Shown piece after piece: positions 43-34,627 of a stretch of 59,275 nucleotides of DNA. The notes beneath the pieces were generated by a model, which made no database searches, was not told the DNA's origin, and saw only the letters and a list, made by a program, of their open reading frames with translations. Origin of the DNA: a virus (taxonomy: Duplodnaviria > Caudoviricetes); the IMG/VR virus record IMGVR_UViG_3300017757_000006, positions 1-59,275 of that record; one strand, written 5' to 3'. How positions within the stretch are numbered: position 1 is the stretch's first letter; every line of letters starts with the position of its first letter. A program made the translations under genes and the position numbers.

Positions 43-119
43 TGGTGCGCCTGAAAGGATTCGAACCTTTGACCTTTGGTTTCGTAGACCAATACTCTAT
101 CCAGCTGAGCTACAGGCGC
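43..119 (-). tRNA. tRNA-Arg (anticodon ACG) with encoded CCA
   Basis: Minus strand GCGCCTGTAGCTCAGCTGGATAGAG...TTGGT-CT-ACG-AA-ACCAA...GGTTCGAATCC...CAGGCGCACCA; acceptor, D, anticodon and T arms all pair. Confidence 0.95.
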
Positions 120-13097: not shown

Positions 13098-13610
13098 TTA
13101 TCTAAATCCATTTCTCTTCAGCTGAGAAATAGTGTTGTTGGGGGATGTATGATGAATCCCAATACCACCGGCAGCCTCCCATTCTTTGATATTTTTGAGA
13201 TAATCATCAATCAAAATGTTGGGTTTACCGCTTGTCGTGGCATATTTCTGTTTATCTGCACGTTGCACCAAATGAATCCTACCAGTAGGTCTTGCATTTT
13301 TTGCTAACCACTTCTTCTTGCCAGGTCTACTGTTCGCATCCCTGTTAGAATATGCAGACAAGATGTTTGCTTTATATCTATTAATAAATTTCCACATCTT
13401 TTCAGAACCAGGCATCCAATCAAGTGTCGCCCAGAAATCCTTCTTGGACGTAATTGCATCCCATCGTTCTTCTTTGTCAGTCTTATCGAACTTCTTACCT
13501 GTAAGTTTTTCATAACCACCGATAAAATTACAGATAACCTGATCCATATCACAATAGATTTGTGGAAGTTCTTCTTCTGAAATCTTTGTAAGTTCCACAA
13601 GACTTTTCAT
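13098..13610 (-). CDS. HAD-family 5'(3')-nucleotidase-like protein
   Basis: YCDMDQVI, ILSA, GKKKW, ILIDD...NIKEWEAAGGIGI. Confidence 0.85.
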   Translation of the reverse strand: MKSLVELTKISEEELPQIYCDMDQVICNFIGGYEKLTGKKFDKTDKEERWDAITSKKDFWATLDWMPGSEKMWKFINRYKANILSAYSNRDANSRPGKKKWLAKNARPTGRIHLVQRADKQKYATTSGKPNILIDDYLKNIKEWEAAGGIGIHHTSPNNTISQLKRNGFR

Positions 13611-15771: not shown

Positions 15772-16039
15772 TTTTTTCTTCCCAAATTTTAAGAACTAGT
15801 TGACCCGTTCTCTTTATTATTCTGTGATACTCCATCTTAGGTATCCTGTATAGTTTTCCTTTTGACATCTCTTCTGGTAATTGATTGTCCATTTGTAATT
15901 TCCAACCTATACCAGATATGACAGATACTTCTCTTGTCCTTTTATCTCTGTGCCAGATTAACTCTTGTTCATCTACAGACTCACTAAAAGTTCTCAGTAT
16001 TGTATCTTCGTGTCTTTGGTCATCATATGGGTTTACCAA
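15764..16039 (-). CDS. small cupin-like protein
   Basis: ELIWHRD...GWKLQMD...IPKMEYHRIIK. Confidence 0.6.
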   Translation of the reverse strand: MVNPYDDQRHEDTILRTFSESVDEQELIWHRDKRTREVSVISGIGWKLQMDNQLPEEMSKGKLYRIPKMEYHRIIKRTGQLVLKIWEEKND

Positions 16040-17991
16040 AAGAAGTTGCCCCCACCAGACAAACCAAGTTGTTTAGCATATCTCGGCATGTTACATGCCC
16101 AATATCCTGCCTTTGTCTTATCTTTTTTATTTGCACAATCATGTCTTGCAGCAAATGATTTTCTTGCCTCTTTGTCATTTAACTTGATTTTTAATCCAGT
16201 TGTATCACCCCATGATACCTTTTTGATATTTCCAGATGATGGGTCTTTGACATAGACATAGTATTTCTTCGGCCCGCCTGCCTTAGGTTTATTTAGTTCA
16301 ACGTCTTTTCCTTGATACTCTGATTCCATCATTGGACAATCTAGTGGAACATTCTCCCCCTCATAGACTGCGTACTTACCGATATCACCTTCCATCAATT
16401 CCTTATTGAACCCTGTAGGATTAAACTCTCCAGACTTATACTCAACTCTTTTCTCTTGGAAGAACTCGTAGTACTTCTCAGAACCAACACGATATTCGTT
16501 TGATTCTATTAAACTTGCAGTCTTGCATTCTTGACAACAATCTTCTGTTCCACAATGCAAATGTTCTTTGAATGAGATGATAGGTTTAGAAGGAGCCATT
16601 TGATTACTTTCTTTTACTTCAGTTTCTTCTTTCTGTCCCTTTGCTTGTTTCCACAAGTCTGCATCACCAGTAGTTCTAGTCTTACCACCAGTGATAAAAG
16701 AGTTAACTCTAGCAAACGCCCACTGCTGTGGTGTTGTGCCAGGGCGGTGTCCTGTCTTCCACGCCGCCATACCTCTATCGTATACTTTCTTTAGAATACC
16801 ATATGAGATACCAGACTTGTCTGCTTTCTTAACAAGTCCTTCAATCTTCTCATCTAGCAACATAAGTTCAACTTCAGGCGGATAATTATATCCCTCTTTA
16901 GGAACACAGTTTGGCACCATTTTGCCGCCCTTCTTCTTCATTCCTTGTTGTGTGTGAGTATCCCAACATGGGTCGTCTTCACCAAACATTTGTTTGAACT
17001 TCTTTGTATGCTTGGATGGTTTAGTCTCTGCACCCTTATCGCCAGGAGCAGGCCCATCCTTTGCTTTTGCAAAATGTGCTGCACGTTTCTTTTTAGTAGA
17101 TACTGACATTTCATCACCATCAGCATCTTTTGCATAATACTTTGCTGGTTCAGTACCTTTTCTATCTTTAATATCTTTGTCTTGTTTTACTTCATATAAC
17201 CACTTCTTGTGAGTAGTACCGTCTTGTTCTGAGAACACAAGATAGTTTGTGCCTCTACGAATAACTTTACCAGATACGCCTGTGTAGTTATCTTCTACAA
17301 TATCACCAATTGCATAGATTGTACCTTCAATGTACATATCACGAATTACATCTTCTTCTGTCTGTTCTACTTGGTGTACAATGAAAGACTCACGAATGCC
17401 CATATGTTTACGAACATCTTTGAATAAAGACATTCCTTGTTTGAAGTTTTTAGGAAGTCCATTCTTAAAAGAATCAAAATCATCAGCAGATGCTGCAGCA
17501 CGCATCTTAGAAGCAGACATCCCTGTCACTCCCTCTGCATCTGGGTCTCTTTCACCAGCAGATACAACCTCAATATTGTCGAACCCATAGTAACCGTGTC
17601 TACCTTCAACACCATTATACTTGTTCAACAATGTATCAAACTCTGTTACACGATCAGAACCAACAACCATCACGACTGATTTATGTCCTTTATTGTGTAG
17701 TGATACTGCAATTTCGAATACTTGTCTCGCTTTATCAACAACAATGTTCCTTGCATGTTTTGGGAACATCTTCTTCATGTAAGCAACTTTCTTACTGTAA
17801 GGAAGAGGGTCTTTCTTAGGGTTCTCTGAGTGTGATGCAAAAACATAGTATGGAGCGCCAGGATTTTTCTTTGCCTGTTTCTCTACTGCTTCTAAAAGTT
17901 TTTCATGTCCTGTAGTTGGTGGATTGAATCTACCAAAGGTGAAAACACATGTATCCCCACGAGCTTCTCTAATGTCTTTGAAACTTTTCAT
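16033..17991 (-). CDS. HIGH-motif nucleotidyltransferase (cytidylyltransferase-like) fused to several small domains
   Basis: FTFGRFNPPTTGHEKL, VVGSDR, MSASKMR; later PCW..VPNCVP, RGMAAWKTGHRPG...ARVNSF, ARKSFAARHDC. Confidence 0.85.
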   Translation of the reverse strand: MKSFKDIREARGDTCVFTFGRFNPPTTGHEKLLEAVEKQAKKNPGAPYYVFASHSENPKKDPLPYSKKVAYMKKMFPKHARNIVVDKARQVFEIAVSLHNKGHKSVVMVVGSDRVTEFDTLLNKYNGVEGRHGYYGFDNIEVVSAGERDPDAEGVTGMSASKMRAAASADDFDSFKNGLPKNFKQGMSLFKDVRKHMGIRESFIVHQVEQTEEDVIRDMYIEGTIYAIGDIVEDNYTGVSGKVIRRGTNYLVFSEQDGTTHKKWLYEVKQDKDIKDRKGTEPAKYYAKDADGDEMSVSTKKKRAAHFAKAKDGPAPGDKGAETKPSKHTKKFKQMFGEDDPCWDTHTQQGMKKKGGKMVPNCVPKEGYNYPPEVELMLLDEKIEGLVKKADKSGISYGILKKVYDRGMAAWKTGHRPGTTPQQWAFARVNSFITGGKTRTTGDADLWKQAKGQKEETEVKESNQMAPSKPIISFKEHLHCGTEDCCQECKTASLIESNEYRVGSEKYYEFFQEKRVEYKSGEFNPTGFNKELMEGDIGKYAVYEGENVPLDCPMMESEYQGKDVELNKPKAGGPKKYYVYVKDPSSGNIKKVSWGDTTGLKIKLNDKEARKSFAARHDCANKKDKTKAGYWACNMPRYAKQLGLSGGGNFFW

Positions 17992-18383
17992 TATTCCGTA
18001 CCCATTCCTCTTGCCTTTTTAAGTCTTTCCAACTCCGACTTACGGAGTTTAACCATTAACTTTTTTGCAATCTTTTTAACTGCAGCGCCCTTAGTTTTCA
18101 TTATTCTATTATCTAGGTTCTGTCTTTGCATCAAAGATAGGTTTGCATATTCGTTTGGTTCTAGTCCAGCAAACTTCTTAATAATAAATTGCTTTGCTTG
18201 TTTATTTGCACGTTGTTTAAGTTTGCCATCTGAGGCTAACTTCTTTTTATTTCTTGCAACCTTTGCCTTGAATGCAGAAGACTTTGTAAGTTTCTTCATT
18301 CGTAAACCCATCTTGCGTCTAGTCGCAACAGACAGCGCTTTACGTTCAGTCAAGTCAGATATGAGATCATTCCATTCAATCAT
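17991..18383 (-). CDS. very basic (Lys/Arg-rich) protein
   Basis: ATGA overlap with upstream gene; nucleic-acid-binding-like composition. Confidence 0.75.
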   Translation of the reverse strand: MIEWNDLISDLTERKALSVATRRKMGLRMKKLTKSSAFKAKVARNKKKLASDGKLKQRANKQAKQFIIKKFAGLEPNEYANLSLMQRQNLDNRIMKTKGAAVKKIAKKLMVKLRKSELERLKKARGMGTE

Positions 18384-19630
18384 TTGTCCCACGCCTTAAT
18401 TGCAGTAAAGTTATTAAAACTAAATTCCATACGGTCTACTAGTTTTACTGCATCACCAGATACCCTGTCGATTGCAACATAACCTTCTGGATTAGTAACC
18501 TTAAATCCATTTGATGTTTTAATGAATGTATCAGTTAATCCCTTGACACTATTTAGTTTCTTAACAATTCCCATCTTTGCATCAACCAAGTGTCCTTGGA
18601 AGGCAATGATGTTCTCTAAATTCTTTGTGTGTTTTTTGACTTCACGAAGATACTCAGTCTGAAGATTGGTATACTTCTCTTTACCTTTGTCACTTTTAAC
18701 TTTGTCTATTTGTTTTTGAATTGCATCGAATACCCACTTCTCGTATCCCTTTGCATGTCCTCTGGGGTCACTAATCTTCTGTCCCTGTCGAACTTTACTA
18801 TTATTGTATGTTTTTAATTGAGCACCGGCAAGTTGTCCTGTAAATACATCCTGTAGTTTTAAGAACTTGTTTAATTGTGCAGAATTAATTTTCCTAAATG
18901 TAGAACCAGCAGATGATAATGATTTAGTGACAACAGCAGTCTCAGTTGCTGTCATAGTTGCCTTACCAGATACATCCTTGTATGTTGCATCGTCCATCCA
19001 AACAGATGAGGGTTTGGTAAGTCCCTTAATGTTTGCACCGAATTTAGCTTTCATCCCTTGCAAATCACTACCAGAATATGTTGTGTGCCATACGACACCA
19101 ATCTTTGAATACTTGATTATTTTGCCCAAGTCAGAGTTTACATCTACTGCATATACGATTGTGTTTGGTTGAAAGGTATAATACTTCTTACCTTCGATAG
19201 TTGTTGTGTCAACATCTTCAGAAGTATACATCAAGTCGCCCTGTAGAACGTCTTTGATACCTAACTTGGAAAACTCTGCAAGTGCAATTTTGAACTTAGT
19301 GTTCAGTGAACCAGAAAGTCCATCTGCATCAATCTCTTCAGATGTTTTGTAGAGTTTTGGAGTTGCGTTGAATACTGACTTCTTTGCAACAAAGAATTTA
19401 CCATCAGCAGGGTCGATACCAGCAAAGATTGCGGGCGCACCATCCCACTTGACAGTCATATTTACAGATGAACGAGATGCACCAGCTAACATGTCTCTGA
19501 GTGAACGAACAAAGTTAATTGCTGCTCTACCGCCAGGCACTCCGAAATTCAAAATTTCGTCTTCGATGTGTTCTAAGTGTAGGTTTTTCCCACCTTTATC
19601 TTCAGCGAGATACCCCGAAAAGTTTAGCAT
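18380..19630 (-). CDS. DUF6267-like protein with ligase-type nucleotidyltransferase motifs
   Basis: KNLHLEHIED; TVKWDGAP, LQGDLM, PEGYVA, AVKLVDR; N-terminus MLNFSGYLAE. Confidence 0.75.
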   Translation of the reverse strand: MLNFSGYLAEDKGGKNLHLEHIEDEILNFGVPGGRAAINFVRSLRDMLAGASRSSVNMTVKWDGAPAIFAGIDPADGKFFVAKKSVFNATPKLYKTSEEIDADGLSGSLNTKFKIALAEFSKLGIKDVLQGDLMYTSEDVDTTTIEGKKYYTFQPNTIVYAVDVNSDLGKIIKYSKIGVVWHTTYSGSDLQGMKAKFGANIKGLTKPSSVWMDDATYKDVSGKATMTATETAVVTKSLSSAGSTFRKINSAQLNKFLKLQDVFTGQLAGAQLKTYNNSKVRQGQKISDPRGHAKGYEKWVFDAIQKQIDKVKSDKGKEKYTNLQTEYLREVKKHTKNLENIIAFQGHLVDAKMGIVKKLNSVKGLTDTFIKTSNGFKVTNPEGYVAIDRVSGDAVKLVDRMEFSFNNFTAIKAWDK

Positions 19631-21076: not shown

Positions 21077-21365
21077 CTGTAAAGTGGCCCTCATCTATAT
21101 TCTGTTCAATTAAATGTGCTAGAATGTCTCCAATGAGATTAAAGAAATCATCACCAAAGCATTCTTTACCTAGTCCATTAGAGTCTAACATATTCCACTC
21201 AAATTGTAAAGAGGCATTTTCTTTTTTTTCGTCTTCTATTATAGAAACTTTACCATACTCGTATACAACACCTTGCCACATACCAGCTTTTTCTGTAAGT
21301 CCTATACCTGTCCATGTCTTAGATTCGTTCTCTACAAACTTGTAATACTCACCCATGTCAGACAT
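21039..21365 (-). CDS. hypothetical protein at the T4 gp40 position
   Basis: GVVYEYGKVSI...FFNLIGDIL; immediately upstream of gp41. Confidence 0.6.
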   Translation of the reverse strand: MSDMGEYYKFVENESKTWTGIGLTEKAGMWQGVVYEYGKVSIIEDEKKENASLQFEWNMLDSNGLGKECFGDDFFNLIGDILAHLIEQNIDEGHFTDASDDDRKDNIQ

Positions 21366-21903
21366 AATGTAGATAACTCCCTATAATATATTTTGGTTTA
21401 TCAATTGGTTTTCTTCCAGCATGTAAATGTGTCCACATTGGGGGGAACATTGTCATCCTACCTGTCTTTGGTTGAACAGAAATATCAAATTGTGGAAACT
21501 CTGTGTGGCCACCTTCATTATCATTTAGATATAAAAAGAACACCAAGAACCTTGGCGCACTATCAATACTACCAACGTCAACATGATTGTCGAACTCATC
21601 AACATCATTAGGCATATATCTTTTCATTCTAAAGTTTTCAAATGCAAACTGTTGTGGAAACATTCTTTCTGTTATATCACAGTCTTTCATATACTTATCA
21701 ATGTAACTGAAGAAAACCTCTTGAAGAGTATCTTCAAAAGGCTTCCACTGTTCATGCAGTTGTAGTGTTACTTGTTTGAAAGAACGATGACCATCAAGAA
21801 CGACTTCCTCATGGTGTTGAGGAAACCGTTCAAACATGGCAATGAGTTGTTTTGATAACGACTCAGATATTACGTTCTCATACGTCTGTATTAGGTTCTG
21901 CAT
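21358..21903 (-). CDS. 2OG-Fe(II) oxygenase
   Basis: HVD, FFLYLND, GGHTEF, FPP..THLHAG, KY. Confidence 0.9.
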
Positions 21904-22957
21904 CTTCTGGTAATTCCTCAACTGATTCTTCAACATCTGCCAGTTTTGTCCCATACTTAAATTCTTTACCAGCGACAACATCTAGTTGTTGCATCACTTC
22001 CTCAGTAAAGTATTTCTCTGGGTTGTTATTAATAGTTTTACCAAATGTTTTTGTACCATCAGGCAACTCAATACGAGTTGATACTGACTTAAATATACCA
22101 TACTTGATTGCAAGTTCTAGCAAACCATAGTATCTATCAAGTCCACGTTCATACATTAATCGTACATCAACCATCTTATGTTCAATAGTTAATCGTGACT
22201 TAGCATTCTTACAGTGAATAATGTTACCAACAACAGCAGTTCCATCTTTCTCTTTCTTCTTGGAAAGATATACGATAGATGATGCCGCATACTTTAGTCC
22301 AGAACCACCACCCATTTCTTTGGTAGGGAACATAGAACCAACTACGTCATATGTGTGATTAGTAACAATCATAGGTACTTTTGCTTTACCTAATTTAAGT
22401 GTCAGTACACGAAATGTTGCCTTAACAATCTGAGCCCTTGTCATATCCCTAGTCTCTTTACCTTCGGCAGTATCTTCTACTTCTTTCGTTGTAGATAACA
22501 TACCAAGTGAATCAAGACATAACATCATAGGAGCTCGTTGTCCTTCTGGTGTTTCTAAGTATTTGTCTAGAACCTTAATCGACTGTGTTCTAAACTCTTG
22601 TACTGTTGTTACAGGTAAGATAACCATACGAGAGGGGTCAATTCCTCTGTCAACTACCATCTGTCTTGTGATTGCAGATTCAGACTCAAAATACAACACA
22701 CCAGCATCTGGGTTTGCATCAAGGAATGACTTTACCATGCCCATCAAAAAGAATGTTTTACCTGTTGCACTTTCGCCTGCAATAGCAGTAATCTTGTTGG
22801 ATGCAAGTCCACCATAGATACTACCAGACAAAAGAGCGTTGAAGATATATGAACCAGTATCAATGAAGGAATCTACATCCCCCGCTTCAACGCCATCTGA
22901 TACTAGTGCAGCGTATTCATTGCCCGCTGTTTTGGCAATATCTTTCAAAAAGTCCAA
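21878..22957 (-). CDS. uvsX: RecA-like recombinase
   Basis: [31 protein letters not shown]. Confidence 0.95.
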
Positions 22958-23365
22958 TTATAAATCTCCTTCTTCTCTGTTTTCAGAACGAAATGAGTCG
23001 AACCCATCTGGGTATCGTGCTTCAAGTTTGTCTGTGTTCATATATATGATTTCCTCTATATTAGTATCCAGAGCAATACATGCCTGACTAATATACCAAA
23101 GAATATCACCCAATTCACGCTTAGCGTGCCATACAGTTTGGTCGTCCATAGGTTTTCCTTGGAACAAACACTTCTTCACAATCTCTGTGAATTCACCACT
23201 CTCTGCACTCAATCCCATTGCAGCAGTGATTAGACGTTCTGGTGGAACACCAAAATCATCAATAATGTCCAGTGCATCACCAAATGCATCTGGATCTTTA
23301 GATTCGTCACTAGTCACCTGATCGACAAATCTTATGTAATCTATCAATAATGTATCGTCACGCAT
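22958..23365 (-). CDS. MazG-like NTP pyrophosphohydrolase
   Basis: GLSAESGEFTEIVKK, KRELGDILWY, KLEARYP. Confidence 0.9.
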   Translation of the reverse strand: MRDDTLLIDYIRFVDQVTSDESKDPDAFGDALDIIDDFGVPPERLITAAMGLSAESGEFTEIVKKCLFQGKPMDDQTVWHAKRELGDILWYISQACIALDTNIEEIIYMNTDKLEARYPDGFDSFRSENREEGDL

Positions 23366-23400
23366 ATAGCATCTCCTTTAGTTATAGGTTATAGTTTACT

Positions 23401-23429
23401 ATAATAACAAATTATTAAGCGTTTGTCAA
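23401..23429 (-). promoter_or_regulatory. sigma70-type promoter for mazG-uvsX
   Basis: TTGACA-N17-TATTAT. Confidence 0.7.
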
Positions 23430-23725
23430 GAGAGAATTACACCTTTTTGTGGAACTTGTATTCCACTAGTCTGTGTTTGCCATCCTGTAGCAATCTCTTT
23501 CATAGTAGGTACTACAAAAGCAATACAAGTCTTATTGAACTGCAAAGTTCCGTCAACCTTTTCACCTGTCATACAGACACCATCAACAAGAGCTACACCC
23601 TTTTCATTTACTTGTACCAAACGTGGACGTTCAATAGTATAGGACATCATATCATCTACAATGTATTTACCAATTACTTCTGCACCGTTTGTTAGCACAA
23701 GTGTTACAATATCATTTTCTTTCAT
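23426..23725 (-). CDS. Sm/LSm-like small beta-barrel protein
   Basis: IVTLVLTNGAEVIGK, C-terminal TSGIQVP. Confidence 0.6.
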   Translation of the reverse strand: MKENDIVTLVLTNGAEVIGKYIVDDMMSYTIERPRLVQVNEKGVALVDGVCMTGEKVDGTLQFNKTCIAFVVPTMKEIATGWQTQTSGIQVPQKGVILS

Positions 23726-23739
23726 TTTATTTTCCTTTG

Positions 23740-25089
23740 TTAGTCTTTCCAACGGTATGTTGGAAAAGAACCGTTCACATCAAATATGTTTGGGTGATTC
23801 ATAAGAGCACGCCGATATGGTGTCCACTTAATTCCTCTACCCCAACACAACCAATCCATCAAATCTATCTTTCTAACTTCTTTGTTAGTTTTTATAAATT
23901 CAACAATTTCTTTGAACTTCTCACTATCACCCATAACTTTCTGTTTTGATAACAAGTCATTCATATATTCATTCATACCAATTATCTTATCTTTGTAGAT
24001 AAGTTTATTGTTAATCCAATCTAGTGCTTTTGATGCTTCTTCATTTCTATATTGAGGGTCATCCAAATATGTATTCAGTAACATTAGTGCATCATGGTCA
24101 TCTGAAAAGAAGTCTCCCTGCTGATATAGTTCTTCATAGTAACCAGCATCATACATGATATAAGGAACACCGTTCATCATACCGTCTGTAGTAGCAACAC
24201 TCCATCCACCATATTTCTGTTTTGGAGAGAATCCAACATAACACTTTTGCAACTCTTTATAATACCATTCCTTATCGCCTTTTGTTGTTACAACATAATC
24301 ACGATTAGGTTTATCTAAGAGTGGAATCCAAACTTTGAAGTCCTGTCGCATTTCCCATAACCTATCACACATTGCAATAAATTCTTTGAAGTGTTTATAG
24401 GTATCTGGTCGATGGTTGAATACAATAGTCTTTTCATTATGCTTTGTTACATCTATATCATCAACAACATCTTTTTTATTTACACCCAAATGTTGAACAG
24501 TCAATATCCTATCCAAGTCTGTAATAGTTTTAGTATTGAATGTTTCTGAAGCCTGTTCAAGTACCAAGTCTTTCTGTGCCTGTGTATTGATATAACATCT
24601 ATCATATTCTAATAGCCCAGTCATGTTCTGTAGGAAACTATCTTTAGGCCATGCAACAACATCCTTTAGGTCGAACCAATGAGAATATCCCATCACTGGA
24701 GGCATATGGTGTGTAACATTGTAAAGTGTATTAACAAGTTGATGTGTATGTTCAGGCAAGTGTGACATGACTATATCGAAATCTAGACTTTTGTTAAGCA
24801 TCCTTCGTATTACATCTACTCTAAAATGAGAACGCATAGTCTGGGGATAAGTTTCAAAATCCATGTACCACTGCGTTACGTTATCAAATTGTAATGATGG
24901 AACTTCAAAAGGAAGAATCATATAATGCCACAAGTCATCACGAATTTCATTCAGAAGTTTAATCTGATTCTTAACAACTTGAATATAACTATCTTTTTCG
25001 ATATCCTTCTGGAAAGTAATGTTAGGATACCAGAGTACTCTAACAGTTTTTTGAAGTTTTGGTTCTTTTCCTATATCAAATAAATTCAT
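23740..25089 (-). CDS. GT-B fold glycosyltransferase
   Basis: DIVMSHLPE, IVFNHRPDTYK, YYKELQKC, GWSVATTDGMMNGVPYI. Confidence 0.8.
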   Translation of the reverse strand: MNLFDIGKEPKLQKTVRVLWYPNITFQKDIEKDSYIQVVKNQIKLLNEIRDDLWHYMILPFEVPSLQFDNVTQWYMDFETYPQTMRSHFRVDVIRRMLNKSLDFDIVMSHLPEHTHQLVNTLYNVTHHMPPVMGYSHWFDLKDVVAWPKDSFLQNMTGLLEYDRCYINTQAQKDLVLEQASETFNTKTITDLDRILTVQHLGVNKKDVVDDIDVTKHNEKTIVFNHRPDTYKHFKEFIAMCDRLWEMRQDFKVWIPLLDKPNRDYVVTTKGDKEWYYKELQKCYVGFSPKQKYGGWSVATTDGMMNGVPYIMYDAGYYEELYQQGDFFSDDHDALMLLNTYLDDPQYRNEEASKALDWINNKLIYKDKIIGMNEYMNDLLSKQKVMGDSEKFKEIVEFIKTNKEVRKIDLMDWLCWGRGIKWTPYRRALMNHPNIFDVNGSFPTYRWKD

Positions 25090-25478
25090 TATATAACTCT
25101 CTTTCTTAAACTAGAAGAGGAGAAAGAATGTCTCCTACTAGTATAAAATACTTCTATAGGTAAGTCATCACCAGTAAATGACCTTTCTCTATAATCCTCA
25201 CCAATAAACCTAACATCAATCTCTTGTGATTGAAGTAAGTCTATCAAACTTTGTTCTGTATCGTATGGAATAATTTCATCTACATACTTTACACCAGACA
25301 GTTGTACATATCTTTCATACACTGACTGAACTGGTTGATTCTTTTCTTGTCTATCAATAGATGGGTCAGTTTGCAATCCTACTACTAACCTGTCACAGTT
25401 CTTTCTTGCTTCCTTCAACATAACAACATGTCCAGCATGTAGCAAGTCGAATGCACCACAAGTAAAACCAATTGTCAT
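25089..25478 (-). CDS. TagD-like (glycerol-3-phosphate cytidylyltransferase family) nucleotidyltransferase
   Basis: GFTCGAFDLLHAGH, VVGLQTD, KYVDE, GEDY, FSSSSLR. Confidence 0.9.
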   Translation of the reverse strand: MTIGFTCGAFDLLHAGHVVMLKEARKNCDRLVVGLQTDPSIDRQEKNQPVQSVYERYVQLSGVKYVDEIIPYDTEQSLIDLLQSQEIDVRFIGEDYRERSFTGDDLPIEVFYTSRRHSFSSSSLRKRVI

Positions 25479-26080
25479 ATAGCAACACCCATAAACTGAG
25501 TCAAGTCTTGTTGTTTGATAGAGTTCATTCTATATTGAGAATATGATTCAGTATTTTTTCTAGTAAGTGCATCACCATTACCTAGAGTTTCTTTTCCAAA
25601 ATTAATTCTATACTGAAGTAACTGCATCTGTTCTATCGTATATGCCCACCGATTCATTAGTTGTTCATCTTCTTTTTCGAAGTCTGGTTGTGGTAAAATC
25701 AAACCCAAATACATTGGAAGATTTGTCAATGTACCGTTCAAAACATCATCACCATAACCATAGACTTCTATAATTTTTGCATGACTTGATTCAGCACCAA
25801 CACCTGTAGTCAGAGGTTTATGGTGAGTTGTCATTCTTTTATGAATATGACTTCTAGTTTTCCCCTTATGACCATTTTGTTTATCATAATAATTACCAGC
25901 AGACTTTCCAATATATACACACCCCTCAAACTCACAAGGGAACTGGTAAGGTTTTGGCATTACATCATTAAAAACAAATCCATAAGTTGCACCGTGAAAA
26001 GCGAGTTGATCACAGTGTTTATAGTAGTCTGTAAATTTCATCCATTCACATTTGTAAGGCGATAGTATTCTACTGTCCAT
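25475..26080 (-). CDS. GIY-YIG-like hypothetical protein
   Basis: ATYGF...CVYIGKS...KRMTTH...IEQ...GN. Confidence 0.5.
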   Translation of the reverse strand: MDSRILSPYKCEWMKFTDYYKHCDQLAFHGATYGFVFNDVMPKPYQFPCEFEGCVYIGKSAGNYYDKQNGHKGKTRSHIHKRMTTHHKPLTTGVGAESSHAKIIEVYGYGDDVLNGTLTNLPMYLGLILPQPDFEKEDEQLMNRWAYTIEQMQLLQYRINFGKETLGNGDALTRKNTESYSQYRMNSIKQQDLTQFMGVAI

Positions 26081-26090
26081 TTTTTTCTCA

Positions 26091-27203
26091 TTATCTAATA
26101 ATATCAATCTTATTCATTGTCTCTTGATTCCAGACTTCTAGTTCTGTACGAACCTTATTCTCTGCAATCATTTTGTTGTAACGCTTGATAGCAAGTTTTC
26201 TCCACCATGCAATCACACCTTCAAGTTCAAATCTATCATAGTTTTCAGCTTTTGTCAATAGATTAGTTTTACCTAATAGAACATCTTTTGCATTAGAGTA
26301 TCCATACTCTCCCATGTAGAATCTTTTCTGTGTGGTAACATCACCAGCCTTTGCAATCTGTTTAGAGAACAACTCATACGCTTTTGTATCGTGTTCCTTT
26401 AGACTTGCTTTGATAACACCTACCATCTTAGTCTGCATTTTTAGTTTACGAGATGATGCACCTTTATGTATCAAGTCTTCGCCACCATTCTTTTCTGTAA
26501 ACCAATCACGCATCTCAAAGTAGATTTCTTCTCCAAGTGTCAATAAAAACTTAGATTGAGTATCTCCCTTGTAACGTAAGAATGGACGCATACCATCATA
26601 CATAGAAGAACCTTTGATGTTACCATAAAGAGATGTTGTCTCAAATAAACAAAACTCTGTATCATATTTCTTGTTTAACATCCTACGAACTTCATGTGAG
26701 TTGCAGATTGCCGCCATCAATTTACCACCAAGATAGTTATATCCAAATGGTTGTACAGGAACAATGTTGAAACCCATGATAGCACGTTTGTTAAAGATAT
26801 CTAAATCTGGAACACCACCCAAGTAATCATTACGAGGTTTTGAATTGATTAGTGGTGAACCTAGTTTGATAAATCCAACCACAGTATTTGTAGTTGTTTC
26901 CTTAACAACTAGTTTCATCTCTTTGCCTGGCGCATTGTCAGGCGAGAATGATGCAACTTTCTCCAACATAGTATCAAAGGTTTGTGATGGAACTTGTACA
27001 ATAGAAAAGTTCATATCCTCTGGATGCATATCATATGATTGAAACATATCATCTTCCAATCCAAATCCTGGCAGTGCAGTAGGAATATTCTTTACACGTT
27101 CAATCTTACGAGCACGAAAATAGTCATCAATGCGTCCAAAGTCTTTGAAGTAAGTCATCAACTTTGTTGCGGCAAATATTGCATCATCTCGTTCTAGTAT
27201 CAT
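26091..27203 (-). CDS. DUF4338 (DruA-like) protein
   Basis: GFIKLGSP, VPVQPFGYNYLGGKLMA, ETTSLYG, SMY, KGDT. Confidence 0.75.
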   Translation of the reverse strand: MILERDDAIFAATKLMTYFKDFGRIDDYFRARKIERVKNIPTALPGFGLEDDMFQSYDMHPEDMNFSIVQVPSQTFDTMLEKVASFSPDNAPGKEMKLVVKETTTNTVVGFIKLGSPLINSKPRNDYLGGVPDLDIFNKRAIMGFNIVPVQPFGYNYLGGKLMAAICNSHEVRRMLNKKYDTEFCLFETTSLYGNIKGSSMYDGMRPFLRYKGDTQSKFLLTLGEEIYFEMRDWFTEKNGGEDLIHKGASSRKLKMQTKMVGVIKASLKEHDTKAYELFSKQIAKAGDVTTQKRFYMGEYGYSNAKDVLLGKTNLLTKAENYDRFELEGVIAWWRKLAIKRYNKMIAENKVRTELEVWNQETMNKIDIIR

Positions 27204-29734
27204 CCAAAAAAGTCCTCAAGTGTTGTTTGTGTCCCATATGAACGGTCAATGTTCCATCCAATCTGGTTCATAATAAATGTCAATGGTTCTACAAACGCTT
27301 TCTCATACTGTAGATCATAGTCGATATAACGATGAATGTCAAGTTCTTTTGGTAATTTAGTTATAAAGGATATCACATTAGAAGACATAGGGTTTGGTGT
27401 TCGCATGTTGATAAACTTGATCTTCTCACCTTCTTGAATAAGAGGATACTTGTTTGTCAACTTTTTCTGTTTACAGAAGTGATTGTATAACAATGCACCT
27501 TTACAATGCATAGGTACACCTTTAGAGAAAATACTAGAACTACTAGTCCACTTCTTTAGTCCATTCACTGAACGAGGAAATGCAATCTCTTCTGGTGGAA
27601 GTTTCATAAACTCTTCACGAAAGTCTTGGATAAAGTTGTTTACATCTTTCTCTGTACCAGACATAATAATCTTTAGACATTCTTTAATCTTGTCACGACA
27701 TGGGGCAGGCGTAGAAGACTTGACTGCCTCAATACCCATAATCTTCAGAGAGGGTTCGTGATAACGTACACCCTCAACATCCCATGCATTTAGAATGTAT
27801 CTTTTCTTTGCAGTCCAGATGCCTTTGTCAGCGATAACTTCACGTTTCATTTGCATCTTCTGGTCGAATGCATTTACATAAGTAGCAAGATCTTGATAAC
27901 TCTTATCAATAAAAGGTTCAATTTTCTCTTGAGCAATTCTATCAAGGAAATCCACCGCCCTCCCACGATACGCACTCTCCGACTCATCTGTTCTCTTCGG
28001 TAGCACTTTATTAATAAGCTCGTCAAACCTAATGTATACTGAATCCGTATCCGATGCAATAACATAATCAACTCCTTCACTCTTCAATAGTTTATTTAAG
28101 TAACCATTCAGTGCTTGTTCAATCCACCGAATAGATAATTGTCCAGAAGTAGTAATACCTTCTGCAATACGCAAGTCATAGTATCTGAACCATTCGTTAC
28201 CAATCGCACCATAAGCAGAGTTCAAGGAAATCTTTCTTGCCATCTGGATGTTTTGATAACGAGACACATCATTGAGATACTTTGGATCTTTCGTATCTTC
28301 GTATTGTTGTTTTGCAGTCAACATCTTTTTCTTGTAGATAGTACGGTCATTGTACATCTCTTGCATCATATCAGGCAAGAATCCCTGTTGTTTGGTTCTG
28401 AACAACGCACCATTTGGTGTACAGGTAACAGATGCTGGTTTCAGTGGAGATAAGTCGTGTTGTTTTTGCAACAACTCATCAACAGATTTGTCAGAATCAA
28501 ATCCCATAGTTTTGGGAAGAAGTGTTTCTGGGGAAATGTTGTATTGCATAATCAAGTGTGGATACAGAGAGTTCAAGTCAAAAGACAGAACCCATTTGTG
28601 TTCTCCCACTTGTGGATCTTTTACATATGCACCAATATACTTCTCACCCTTAGACTCGTTACTGCGTTTCTGAGGGATAACGATTTTACGTTTGAGTAGG
28701 TGATTGTAAATTAGTACGTCCCAATACTTCACGGATGTGAATGCATCAGACATGTTGACTTTCGCCTCATACGTCATAGTAAGAAGCAGGTCAATCAGTT
28801 TCATCTTGTCATCTAGTCTATCGACTAGTTCAACGTCCATGATGTTATAGTCGATAAAGGATTGATAGTCTTTAGTGTACCAATCACGAAATGTCTCATA
28901 TGGATTCTCATCCTTACGTTGTCCAAGTTCTACATGAGCGATATGGTCAAGACGATATGATTCTTGGTTTGAGTATGTAAACTTCTTGTACAATTGTAAG
29001 TAGTCGAGATTGTTTACACCCAAGATTTCATATACTTGATCTTTACGTCCAAACCCACTGTTCACCATACGAGCGCTTACAACACCCCAAGGAGATAGAC
29101 GTTTCATTGCGTCTTCACCCATTTGGGAGTTGATACGATTACAGATGTAAGGTAAATCAAAGAACTCAGTATTCCAACCAGTAATGATATCTGGGTGGTC
29201 AGATTCCCACCAGTTTAGAAACCGAGCAAGTAGTTCACGTTCTGTAGGACAATGTATATACTCTACATCATCACGAGATGTTTTGTAGGGTTGCATACCC
29301 CATACAAGAAACGTGCCCTTGTTGTGATCTTTGACAGTGATAGACAGCATTGGTTCTGCTGCTTGGTCTGCATTAGGGAAACCATTCTCACATTCCACCT
29401 CAATATCAATCGTGACAATCTTGAGTTGTTTAGAATCAAACTCAATTTGTTTTGGATACGTTTCAGATAGATATGAGTATGGGAACTGATTCATTCCATA
29501 CACAAGATGCGGTTGAGACTGATACTGTTCTATAAATGCTTTCGCTTCCTTGATAGAAAGAAACTTCATTGGATTGACGTTTTTGTCATCCAAGGTTTTC
29601 CAACCAGTTTCTTTCTGAACAGGCACGAAAAGAGTGGGTTCATACTTCACTTTGAAGTTAGAACGAACCCCATTCTTTACTGCACGAACAAGAAGTTGAT
29701 TACCCCATTGGGCAACATGTGTGTAGAAATTCAA
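27200..29734 (-). CDS. gp43: family B DNA polymerase (T4 gp43-like)
   Basis: DIEVE, FDLPYI, SFDLNSLYPH, KISLNSAYG, SDTDS, KKRY; TTG start inferred. Confidence 0.97.
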   Translation of the reverse strand: MNFYTHVAQWGNQLLVRAVKNGVRSNFKVKYEPTLFVPVQKETGWKTLDDKNVNPMKFLSIKEAKAFIEQYQSQPHLVYGMNQFPYSYLSETYPKQIEFDSKQLKIVTIDIEVECENGFPNADQAAEPMLSITVKDHNKGTFLVWGMQPYKTSRDDVEYIHCPTERELLARFLNWWESDHPDIITGWNTEFFDLPYICNRINSQMGEDAMKRLSPWGVVSARMVNSGFGRKDQVYEILGVNNLDYLQLYKKFTYSNQESYRLDHIAHVELGQRKDENPYETFRDWYTKDYQSFIDYNIMDVELVDRLDDKMKLIDLLLTMTYEAKVNMSDAFTSVKYWDVLIYNHLLKRKIVIPQKRSNESKGEKYIGAYVKDPQVGEHKWVLSFDLNSLYPHLIMQYNISPETLLPKTMGFDSDKSVDELLQKQHDLSPLKPASVTCTPNGALFRTKQQGFLPDMMQEMYNDRTIYKKKMLTAKQQYEDTKDPKYLNDVSRYQNIQMARKISLNSAYGAIGNEWFRYYDLRIAEGITTSGQLSIRWIEQALNGYLNKLLKSEGVDYVIASDTDSVYIRFDELINKVLPKRTDESESAYRGRAVDFLDRIAQEKIEPFIDKSYQDLATYVNAFDQKMQMKREVIADKGIWTAKKRYILNAWDVEGVRYHEPSLKIMGIEAVKSSTPAPCRDKIKECLKIIMSGTEKDVNNFIQDFREEFMKLPPEEIAFPRSVNGLKKWTSSSSIFSKGVPMHCKGALLYNHFCKQKKLTNKYPLIQEGEKIKFINMRTPNPMSSNVISFITKLPKELDIHRYIDYDLQYEKAFVEPLTFIMNQIGWNIDRSYGTQTTLEDFFG

Positions 29735-29760
29735 AACATTTTTCCTTATCAATTAGATTC

Positions 29761-29789
29761 ATTATATACGTTTTAAGGGTAAATGTCAA
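29761..29789 (-). promoter_or_regulatory. consensus sigma70 promoter for gp43
   Basis: TTGACA-N17-TATAAT. Confidence 0.85.
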
Positions 29790-33667: not shown

Positions 33668-34627
33668 TTATGCCGCTTCGGCATACTCAAGTGCTTTATC
33701 CAAAGCGTTGAGTTTCACTTTACGGTTACGTCCGTACCAAGCAGATTGTAATCTACCATCATTTGAACGTCCCTGTAAGTGGTCTGTCATGTTGGTGACA
33801 GAGTTGAATGCAGTCCACCATGTACCCTGAGCAAACTCAGCGCCAGGTTGTACATTCAAGTTCTCAAAAGCAAGTTTTGAGTTGCGAGAAGTAAAGGGCA
33901 GGACACCTTCTACTTTCTCTTTTGCAGGCGCACCGAATACTTCATTGAAGTATTGAATAACATTCTCGCCGGTTGCCTTTTTAGAACCAAGGAACGCAGC
34001 CATTGATTTGTACTGTTCCATCTTCTCACGAGCAATACCCATCTGTTCTTTTACTTCAGCAGGGTCAAATGCCTTACGGTGATTTACCGTAACCATTCTA
34101 TCTGCATTCTGTGATAGAGACAGTGTTAGAGTATTGTTACATACCACACGAATTGGTGTCATACGAATATTAATCGCCTTACCAAACTGGTGTGGATTAG
34201 TGAACAAGAAGTAGTTGTCAGTGACATCACCCTTGAATAATTCAAAAGACTCTTTTGTTTTTGCAAGAGCCCACACCATCTGTCCATCTTTCAATGAACC
34301 AGCAGTGTGCATCTCCATGTCACCAGACATGCAGTACTCGTGGAAAAACTCAAACGCTTCTGAGTTCTGTACTGGATTCCAACCAGTACCAACAACATCT
34401 AATACAGAGTTGTCAGAGGTACGAACAAGCGCCTCTTTGTTTTTGATAGGAACACCTGTTGCAGTAACAAGTGGTTGTTTCTCTACTGTCCAATCAAGTC
34501 CAGCAACCTTTTGGAACTGGTCTGGTGTCAACTCTCGTTCTACCAAAGTACCTAGTCCATGCCAAGGAAGTTCCCCAACATACGCCATTTGCGCTTTTCC
34601 GTCAATCATTTCAAGTTCATGTGCCAT
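33668..34627 (-). CDS. DUF932 phage/plasmid-like protein
   Basis: PWHGLG, AGLDWTV, VQNSEAF, TAGSL, TPIRVVCNNTL, GTWWTAFNSVT..DH. Confidence 0.9.
   Translation of the reverse strand: MAHELEMIDGKAQMAYVGELPWHGLGTLVERELTPDQFQKVAGLDWTVEKQPLVTATGVPIKNKEALVRTSDNSVLDVVGTGWNPVQNSEAFEFFHEYCMSGDMEMHTAGSLKDGQMVWALAKTKESFELFKGDVTDNYFLFTNPHQFGKAINIRMTPIRVVCNNTLTLSLSQNADRMVTVNHRKAFDPAEVKEQMGIAREKMEQYKSMAAFLGSKKATGENVIQYFNEVFGAPAKEKVEGVLPFTSRNSKLAFENLNVQPGAEFAQGTWWTAFNSVTNMTDHLQGRSNDGRLQSAWYGRNRKVKLNALDKALEYAEAA

Follow-up and report, generated by a model that had tools for sequence, protein, structure and literature searches.

A candidate DNA hypermodification cassette built around DruA/DUF4338 and a GT-B glycosyltransferase in the replication module of a T4-like virus

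Which of the restriction, CRISPR and type IV defences are effective against a phage depends on the hypermodifications of its DNA, and to our knowledge all sugar-bearing bases described so far derive from a 5-hydroxymethyl or 5-hydroxy pyrimidine. The virus fragment IMGVR_UViG_3300017757_000006 raises the question of whether a sugar could reach DNA by another route. In this 59-kb IMG/VR fragment (59,275 nucleotides, hereafter the window; estimated completeness about 42%, with 58% of the genome lying outside it), the DNA polymerase gene is followed by a cassette of four genes that pairs a glycosyltransferase, GT449, with a DruA/DUF4338-family protein. The latter is a putative GNAT-like enzyme, abundant among the T4-like phages that infect cyanobacteria, SAR11 and OM43 in the ocean, and no hydroxylase of the ThyA-like or TET kind was seen in the window. 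A preliminary description, made from the sequence alone, had proposed a DNA hypermodification locus here, in the place where T4 keeps gene 42 and its beta-glucosyltransferase. Comparative evidence makes it probable that the cassette modifies the phage's own DNA, and the predicted base would most likely be sugar-bearing and of a kind not yet described.

29761..29789, minus strand: sigma-70-like promoter match TTGACA-17-TATAAT, matching the consensus at 12/12 positions, upstream of the polymerase
27200..29752, minus strand: family B DNA polymerase, the gp43 homologue (phrog_262, E=0; Pfam DNA_pol_B, E=4.1e-31), a context gene
26091..27203, minus strand: DruA/DUF4338-family protein, 370 amino acids (aa), proposed core enzyme (Pfam, phrog_19197, PADLOC DruA)
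25475..26080, minus strand: p210, 201 aa from the ATG at 26080 (the mechanically called open reading frame (ORF) has 210 aa, from the TTG at 26107); 37 homologues, without a family
25089..25478, minus strand: small nucleotidyltransferase of the TagD/RfaE-domain-II class, 129 aa (CTP_transf_like, E=6.5e-17)
23740..25089, minus strand: GT449, GT-B (GT4-like) glycosyltransferase by family-level profile matches, 449 aa, soluble
23743..23970, minus strand: C-terminal 76 residues of GT449, with a helix-helix-wing pattern, holding the basic tail

Nearly every gene of the window (G+C 35-42%) lies on the minus strand. From 32.4 kb down, this strand carries gp45, gp44, gp62, regA, a small ORF and DNA polymerase, followed by the cassette, MazG, UvsX, a 2-oxoglutarate (2OG)-Fe(II) oxygenase, a 108-aa protein and the gp41 helicase. 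From gp45 to gp41 this is the T4 order. The arrangement given in the preliminary description, with all genes of the locus on the minus strand, was borne out, as was its comparison with T4, where gene 42 and beta-gt do lie between 43 and uvsX (43 - imm.1 - imm - 42 - beta-gt - segA - uvsX, segA being a GIY-YIG homing gene).

Among cultured phages, the closest is Melnitz, a myophage of OM43 (Methylophilales), whose polymerase is 81% identical to that of the window; identity to the polymerases of cyanophages and of Pelagibacter phage HTVC008M is 50-54%. In Melnitz (MZ577097.1; L123:4010-8090), four genes between the polymerase and the run p99-MazG-RecA fill the slot that matches the window cassette: a C5 DNA methylase (E=7.4e-55), a Tet_JBP dioxygenase (E=3.6e-11), a 427-aa unknown and a P-loop kinase-like protein. 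By these matches, the slot is recognisable as the known methylase/TET type of post-replicative hypermodification cluster, here in a cultured OM43 phage; the available part of the paper describing Melnitz names the methylase alone from it. The HTVC008M slot holds DUF4338 and a 73-aa ORF, and nothing more. One slot in three related phages thus has three contents, two of them recognisable as DNA-modification genes, and T4 offers a third. Comparative genomics, rather than chemistry, supports both the polymerase-to-uvsX interval as a DNA-modification slot and the view that DUF4338, the nucleotidyltransferase and GT449 belong together. To that extent the proposed locus stood; the chemistry proposed for it did not gain the same support.

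The cassette genes overlap and are coupled to the polymerase, as had been described. ATGA overlaps join the polymerase to DUF4338 and p210 to the nucleotidyltransferase, and a TAATG junction joins the nucleotidyltransferase to GT449. After the sigma-70-like match upstream of the polymerase, the next strong intergenic site stands before MazG, and an 11/12 match within the polymerase coding sequence, at its 3' end, precedes DUF4338. These sites are consensus matches only, and their total (46) is not above that in shuffled sequence (38.7 +/- 6.2). Between genes, no terminator-like site was found from the polymerase promoter to the end of a 99-aa gene that follows the cassette; two minus-strand terminator-like matches in that stretch lie inside the polymerase and nucleotidyltransferase reading frames.

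Linkage of GT449 with DUF4338 was assessed in 73 viral GT449 loci (30 of them close, 41 grouped around a representative of 32% identity, and two reached through p210), 40 of which are well flanked, with at least 3 kb upstream. DUF4338 lies within three genes upstream of GT449 in 30 of these 40, Mom in four, and one or the other in 32. All seven GT449 clusters (65% identity) include a locus with DUF4338 directly upstream or parted from GT449 by cassette genes only. Since many loci are near-identical and hence not independent, distinct settings are a fairer measure than locus counts. The pair occurs after the polymerase (the window lineage), upstream of it (L022-L028), directly before it (L050), between gp44 and gp62 (L100/101, L159-L169), and in regions without replication genes (L035-L040, L058, L064-L074). 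At least five settings, two of them without a nearby replication gene, preserve DUF4338 ahead of GT449; co-occurrence, a check named in the preliminary description, thus supports the linkage.

The reverse sample comprised the 80 DUF4338 loci most similar to the window protein, out of at least 597 in IMG/VR. Within three genes of DUF4338, these best 80 hold GT449 in 20 loci, the nucleotidyltransferase in 15, TET-associated glycosyltransferase (TAGT) in five and GmrSD-like genes in three, and in many DUF4338 is alone. This looks like the pattern of a core enzyme with optional add-ons. Searches of a literature library yielded no DUF4338-glycosyltransferase or Mom-glycosyltransferase pairing; the cluster lists of bioRxiv 10.1101/2023.12.21.572611 and the Mom network of PMC13219725, both available in part, may include such loci.

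From gene families, coupling and linkage across phages, each observed directly, the stretch 27203-23740 on the minus strand can be read as a swap-in DNA hypermodification cassette that would be transcribed with the DNA polymerase. The GNAT-like DruA/DUF4338 protein would first acylate or aminoacylate an exocyclic base amine in replicated phage DNA, the kind of reaction that Mom performs with Gly-tRNA. The TagD/RfaE-class nucleotidyltransferase would then make a nucleoside diphosphate (NDP)-sugar or NDP-polyol, heptose-like or glycerol-like donors being likeliest, and GT449, docked on DNA by its basic C-terminal tail, would move the donor group onto the acyl handle. The DNA would thereby gain a glycosylated N-acyl base and, with it, protection from host nucleases. 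As a whole, this GNAT-then-sugar scheme is plausible and is held tentatively.

The first step depends on the identity of the DUF4338 protein (isoelectric point (pI) 8.9). It scores above the cut-off of Pfam PF14236 DruA (E=1e-6, 28.6 bits, cut-off 27), and phrog_19197 (E=7.7e-150), PADLOC DruA (E=2.1e-8) and 20/20 aligned family members (best E=1.9e-30) agree with the DruA-like call of the preliminary description. The motif QP(F/L)G(Y/F)N(F/Y)LGGKL is invariant across 20 DUF4338 sequences. DUF4338 is described as a GNAT domain in one passage of PMC10853773, and a cyanophage homologue is labelled 'mom' from structure prediction, without experiment, in PMC12801897 (both papers available in part). 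Neither the window protein nor its aligned relatives match Pfam Mom (PF25680), the family profile found nothing significant among PDB profiles, and no longer, fused forms of DUF4338 were found, which is weak evidence. That DUF4338 installs the handle is still something we infer, as the preliminary description did, because Mom homology is not detectable and Mom coexists in relatives and in Melnitz. As a separate matter, an argument for horizontal transfer from DUF4338 being more conserved than the polymerase was rejected, since UvsX is equally conserved.

As for the source of the acceptor group, the search for a thymidylate-synthase-family (ThyA-like) enzyme came up empty in the window, five related records of 16-71% completeness and five complete cultured genomes, and it is true, as had been noted, that the window (about 42% complete) has no hydroxymethylase. 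Tet_JBP was likewise absent from the window, from these five related records and from HTVC008M; the same search finds the Melnitz gene and so is known to work. The window has no C5 DNA methylase, and Mom is absent from both the window and record G001. The remaining candidates for making the acceptor are GNAT-type enzymes. Mom is the only known GNAT that modifies DNA bases, aminoacylating adenine N6 in double-stranded DNA from Gly-tRNA (PMC13219725). The available text of that paper reports no sugar addition to the Mom product, 'glycosyl' and 'sugar' occurring 0 times.

Several points weigh against the proposed scheme. By hhalign, DUF4338 against Mom has a probability of 3.2%; the GNAT fold rests on one sentence of PMC10853773, and the Mom-like active site is putative. 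GT449 is missing from 31/31 cultured-phage records with DUF4338, HTVC008M, S-SSM7, S-CAM9, S-PRM1 and many Synechococcus phages among them, so DUF4338 would have a sugar-independent job. Seven of the 40 well-flanked GT449 loci have neither DUF4338 nor Mom (L043, L046-48, L069, L073, L075). Besides the non-independence of the loci, DUF4338 and GT449 both favour known insertion hot spots of T4-like genomes, and lipopolysaccharide (LPS) synthesis is just as natural a place for 3-deoxy-D-manno-octulosonic acid (Kdo), for heptose-type activation and for GT4 enzymes. Mom and DUF4338 also occur together in islands L039, L050, L051, L053 and L059, and Melnitz has a true Mom gene, annotated 'DUF465', at 69.5-70.4 kb. 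Because of this co-occurrence, the Melnitz gene and the 58% of the genome outside the window, Mom or another enzyme could supply the acceptor.

The best-surviving alternative, which is judged unlikely, builds on that possibility. GT449 and the nucleotidyltransferase would decorate DNA, on an acceptor made by Mom or by a different hydroxylating or aminoacylating enzyme whose gene lies beyond the window, and DUF4338 would do a separate job, such as a second base modification or acylation of the attached sugar. Apart from the incomplete window and DUF4338 standing alone in the 31 cultured-phage records, this is favoured by a lineage in which GT449 lies directly behind Mom and DUF4338 coexists, by records G002, G003 and G004 (of L053, L065 and L074) with 2-3 Mom paralogues each (E about 1e-45, some of them tens of kb apart), by the Melnitz Mom, and by the S-SSM7 genome, which has both Mom and DUF4338. 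It is countered by the far more frequent association of GT449 with DUF4338 than with Mom in well-flanked loci, by the lack of Mom in the window and G001, and by G003 and G004 themselves, where the Mom copies lie tens of kb from GT449 and DUF4338 is in the island.

The neighbours of GT449 in related loci bear on what the cassette acts upon. A Mom-family relative is present in 14 GT449 loci; among the first 71 loci, Mom lies 1-3 genes upstream of GT449 in 11, with two paralogues in L053, L057 and L059. These neighbours match Pfam Mom (E=4.8e-43), and their cluster profile matches the Mom crystal structure PDB 8bv8 (E=4.9e-18). TAGT (E=1.6e-15) flanks GT449 in L026/27 and L071/74, and a further GT4 occurs in L029 and L127. 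GmrSD_N (DUF262) proteins, one with HNH, stand between DUF4338 and GT449 in six loci (L018:5359-6819, L067:855-2309 and four more); GmrSD-type enzymes are host nucleases against sugar-modified DNA. DUF4338 islands also hold an N6/N4 DNA methylase and an FkbM methyltransferase. In L016:9361-10928, KdsA (DAHP_synth_1, E=3.6e-51) and KdsB (CTP_transf_3, E=7.2e-27) directly follow the GT449 relative, which points to a phage-encoded supply of CMP-Kdo.

This company makes it quite unlikely that the GNAT-like enzyme and the glycosyltransferase form a module for anti-defence or takeover that acts on protein or RNA (host defence, tRNA, the replisome or the virion): the enzymes encoded nearby modify DNA or recognise modified DNA, and no protein-glycosylation partner or signal was seen. 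Such a module would nevertheless suit the acetylation of proteins and charged tRNA by GNATs (PMC13219725, available in part), the origin of DruA in a defence system (by its Pfam and PADLOC names) of undefined chemistry, and the probably early expression of the cassette from the sigma-70-like promoter before the polymerase.

In relatives, the gap between nucleotidyltransferase and GT449 holds at least four unrelated large proteins, including the GmrSD-like ones and a family of 410-444 aa. The latter adjoins GT449 in 18 loci from two distant lineages (L003:3289-4521, L051:2254-3582 and 16 more). The pattern YLY...Y(L/V)GIHKG marks its N-terminal part, and its invariant motif GDGN(H/N)T is one that we take to be reminiscent of ParB-like domains; there is no match in Pfam, PADLOC or PDB profiles. 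A second, highly conserved family (mean column identity 74%), with proteins of about 330 aa, is represented by L139:6110-7096 and occurs in 16 of the 80 DUF4338 loci, five of which have TAGT nearby. Where GT449 is lacking, no other gene is met as often shortly after DUF4338, whether as its immediate neighbour or with the nucleotidyltransferase or one to two small ORFs in between; the family has no Pfam or PDB match, and hhalign against GT449 gave nothing.

The donor side of the proposed scheme starts with the nucleotidyltransferase, which belongs to the cytidylyltransferase-like family PF01467 by profile match and by its HxGH motif (HAGH, residues 13-16). Its NCBIfam scores are 77.6 bits for rfaE_dom_II (equivalog cut-off 181.5) and 71.7 bits for TagD (cut-off 165.4), placing it nearest RfaE domain II and TagD, yet far below both equivalog cut-offs. 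The earlier TagD-like label therefore survives as a statement of class, that of TagD and RfaE domain II, and not as one of substrate. The gene is optional, being present in 19 of the 73 GT449 loci, and phage homologues adjoin sugar dehydratase/epimerase genes (cyanophage S-B43). The window has a second nucleotidyltransferase at 16033-17991 (minus strand), a protein of 652 aa that combines a cytidylyltransferase-like domain at its N-terminus with DUF5824 and is homologous to HTVC008M gp130, a 'cytidyltransferase'.

For GT449, the GT-B call is supported at the level of the family and not for the window protein alone, which matches Glycos_transf_1 with E=0.0098 and 15.9 bits, under the cut-off of 26.4. 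Fourteen of 35 relatives match Glycos_transf_1 (best 3.2e-6), and the family profile finds the GT4 enzyme 7qsg (E=6.9e-5), TreT (6e-4) and also 3mbo in PDB; by these matches, the family appears to be GT-B/GT4-like. In the donor-binding acidic region, which we take to be the one named EX7E, the alignment with 7qsg puts near-invariant D302 and E320 at acidic template positions and Ser/Gly at the first Glu position. Hhalign gives a probability of 2.1% against T4 beta-gt and nothing against the Melnitz 427-aa protein.

The cassette proteins are read as soluble, and no hydrophobic segment was found in GT449. Its basic tail (residues 376-449) has a pI of 9.4, against 5.1-5.9 for the catalytic core, and the helix-helix-wing pattern there suggests a candidate winged-helix nucleic-acid-binding module; profile searches gave no confirmation (best PDB-profile match E=0.39; Pfam HTH_45 in 1/35 relatives, 0.0021). 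The 1492 metagenomic relatives form 323 clusters at 50% identity, and ten distant representatives come from metagenomic sources only. There is no match among 50,697 phage records, none in a pattern-limited scan of the genomes of 185,579 prokaryote species, and none in a scan with P0162.

Sugar-activating and GT4-type genes could equally serve the cell surface, with nucleotidyltransferase and GT449 altering host LPS or another surface glycan, for instance against superinfection, and DUF4338 unrelated to them. Such a role would fit the proximity to RfaE domain II and TagD, the relative with KdsA and KdsB, the sugar dehydratase/epimerase cluster around the S-B43 homologue, the JGI source label of relatives ('glycosyltransferase involved in cell wall biosynthesis') and the reading given to pelagimyophage rfaE/GT genes in PMC7029224 (available in part). 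It is nonetheless improbable, as the cassette sits in the replication module, coupled to the polymerase, and not in a host-recognition region; its recurrent neighbours are DNA-directed (Mom, TAGT, GmrSD-like proteins, DNA methylase, and the methylase/TET slot of Melnitz); GT449 has a basic tail and no membrane segment; and the scan of prokaryote genomes, within its pattern limits, found no relative. Moreover, heptose and Kdo are themselves documented on DNA (bioRxiv 10.1101/2023.12.21.572611).

The remaining cassette gene, p210, had been labelled GIY-YIG-like and cast as a nuclease that discriminates unmodified DNA. The label found no profile match (Pfam, PHROG, NCBIfam, PADLOC or PDB profiles), and hhalign gives a probability of 0.3% against T4 SegA and nothing against the 410-444-aa family. 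What remains are leads: a His-rich conserved motif and the GIY-YIG-like residue pattern YGFV...CVYIG.S...R..H...E...N in the alignment, and language-model similarity to GIY_YIG_2 and Eco29kI clusters (scores 0.92-0.93). The discriminating role fared no better, as p210 is absent from 30/30 close GT449 loci, where the nucleotidyltransferase directly follows DUF4338. Among 46 viral p210 relatives, 23 lie right after gp44 and eight right after the polymerase; DUF4338 is within three genes in 26 and the remaining loci are without it. Free-standing homing endonuclease genes lodge at the 3' ends of highly conserved replication genes. Because p210 is absent from the close loci and its relatives sit at the 3' ends of gp44 and the polymerase, it was most probably inserted into the cassette as a mobile endonuclease gene, a reading rated above that of a discriminating nuclease.

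That the cassette genes share no function at all, and are independent cargo brought to T4-like hot spots (after the polymerase; gp44-gp62) with the aid of mobile p210, is very improbable: it would account for the differing slot contents of HTVC008M, Melnitz and the window, for p210 relatives lying at gp44 or the polymerase with or without DUF4338 and for the homing gene segA in the same slot of T4, but not for an order of DUF4338 then GT449 kept across the settings listed above, or for overlapping start and stop codons.

Compared with known systems, the proposed hypermodification cassette shares the polymerase-uvsX slot and the logic of a handle enzyme plus a GT-B enzyme with T4 gene 42 and the alpha/beta-glucosyltransferases; the T4 slot also contains an endonuclease gene, segA. 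Unlike T4, the window has no thymidylate-synthase-family enzyme and GT449 no detectable beta-gt homology; the proposed handle would be post-replicative, through a GNAT-like enzyme, rather than made at the nucleotide level, and the donor-activating enzyme would be phage-encoded. Clusters of C5-methyltransferase, TET (5mYOX) and glycosyltransferase genes are likewise post-replicative cassettes with LPS-related GT4/GT-B enzymes, a cytidylyltransferase-type donor gene and Kdo or heptose; for instance, a phage cluster with a cytidylyltransferase and a GT-B enzyme puts heptose on 5-hydroxymethylcytosine, and Kdo is also found on DNA (bioRxiv 10.1101/2023.12.21.572611, available in part). The window differs in having neither C5 methylase nor TET, with DUF4338 in their place, and TET is absent from the related records searched.

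The arabinosylated 5-hydroxycytosine pathway of RB69 and DLP3 is also T4-like, combining sugar-nucleotide supply with GT4-like DNA glycosyltransferases; these DNA arabinosyltransferases resemble the GT4 structures 7qsg and 3mbo, which are also structural neighbours of GT449. There, in contrast, the acceptor comes from a ThyA homologue, and the nucleotidyltransferase is MurU/GlmU-like, not TagD/RfaE-like (PMC13326640, available in part). Mu Mom (N6-carbamoylmethyladenine, Gly-tRNA-dependent, PDB 8bv8) is a GNAT, and true Mom genes adjoin GT449 relatives; DUF4338 is about 140 residues longer and has no Pfam Mom match. The window protein is in the same Pfam/PADLOC family as DruA of Druantia type I, but its neighbours are the polymerase, p210, the nucleotidyltransferase and GT449, with no DruB-E among them, a negative confined to these neighbours. 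The gene lies in the replication module of a lytic phage, and the phage proteins form their own PHROG, phrog_19197. Membership of the DruA family brings no mechanism with it.

If the proposed hypermodification scheme is true, it predicts a new class of DNA base, provides a first functional hypothesis for DUF4338/DruA, with a foothold on Druantia type I, and accounts for the variable island that recurs within the replication module in this group of phages. A bolder generalisation, which is doubtful at present, is that DruA/DUF4338 proteins, widespread in marine T4-like phages, join Mom as a second and independent family of enzymes that transfer acyl or aminoacyl groups to DNA bases; that GT449-type, TAGT-type and other transferases add sugars to the acyl group, giving the first glycosylated N-acyl DNA bases; and that DruA of Druantia type I marks or senses DNA by the same chemistry.

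The genes that follow the cassette lie outside it.

23426..23725, minus strand: 99-aa protein (ORF of 108 aa), the 'Sm-like' protein of the preliminary description, 31% identical to Melnitz gene 9 (E=1e-25)
22958..23365, minus strand: MazG pyrophosphatase, with its own promoter-like site at 23429-23401; same position in Melnitz
21878..22957, minus strand: UvsX (Pfam/PHROG profile searches)
21358..21981, minus strand: 2OG-Fe(II) oxygenase (Pfam/PHROG profile searches)

Melnitz gene 9 has the same position as the 99-aa protein, and the order MazG, RecA/UvsX, 2OG oxygenase is common to both phages. Since the 99-aa gene, MazG, UvsX and the oxygenase are shared with Melnitz, the variable cassette is confined to 27203-23740. 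The 'Sm-like' protein, MazG and the oxygenase had been counted as members of the locus; they are conserved backbone, and were rejected as pathway members. The 'Sm-like' label itself was not confirmed, as the protein has no family match in Pfam (E<=0.01), PHROGs (E<=0.001) or NCBIfam (E<=0.1), LSM/Hfq included. In two DUF4338 loci (L181:6430-7497 and L182), an IMPDH/GMP-reductase-family gene (E=3.6e-70) stands between the 99-aa backbone gene and MazG.

Elsewhere in the window, a tRNA-Arg (ACG) at 43-119 (minus strand) is its sole tRNA; the tRNA-Arg of Melnitz lies in another neighbourhood. The replication/recombination region also carries, on the minus strand, an NT5C-type 5'-nucleotidase (13098-13610, E=9.2e-6), a DUF6267 protein (18380-19630, E=1.3e-102) and a DUF932 protein (33668-34627, E=7.5e-41).

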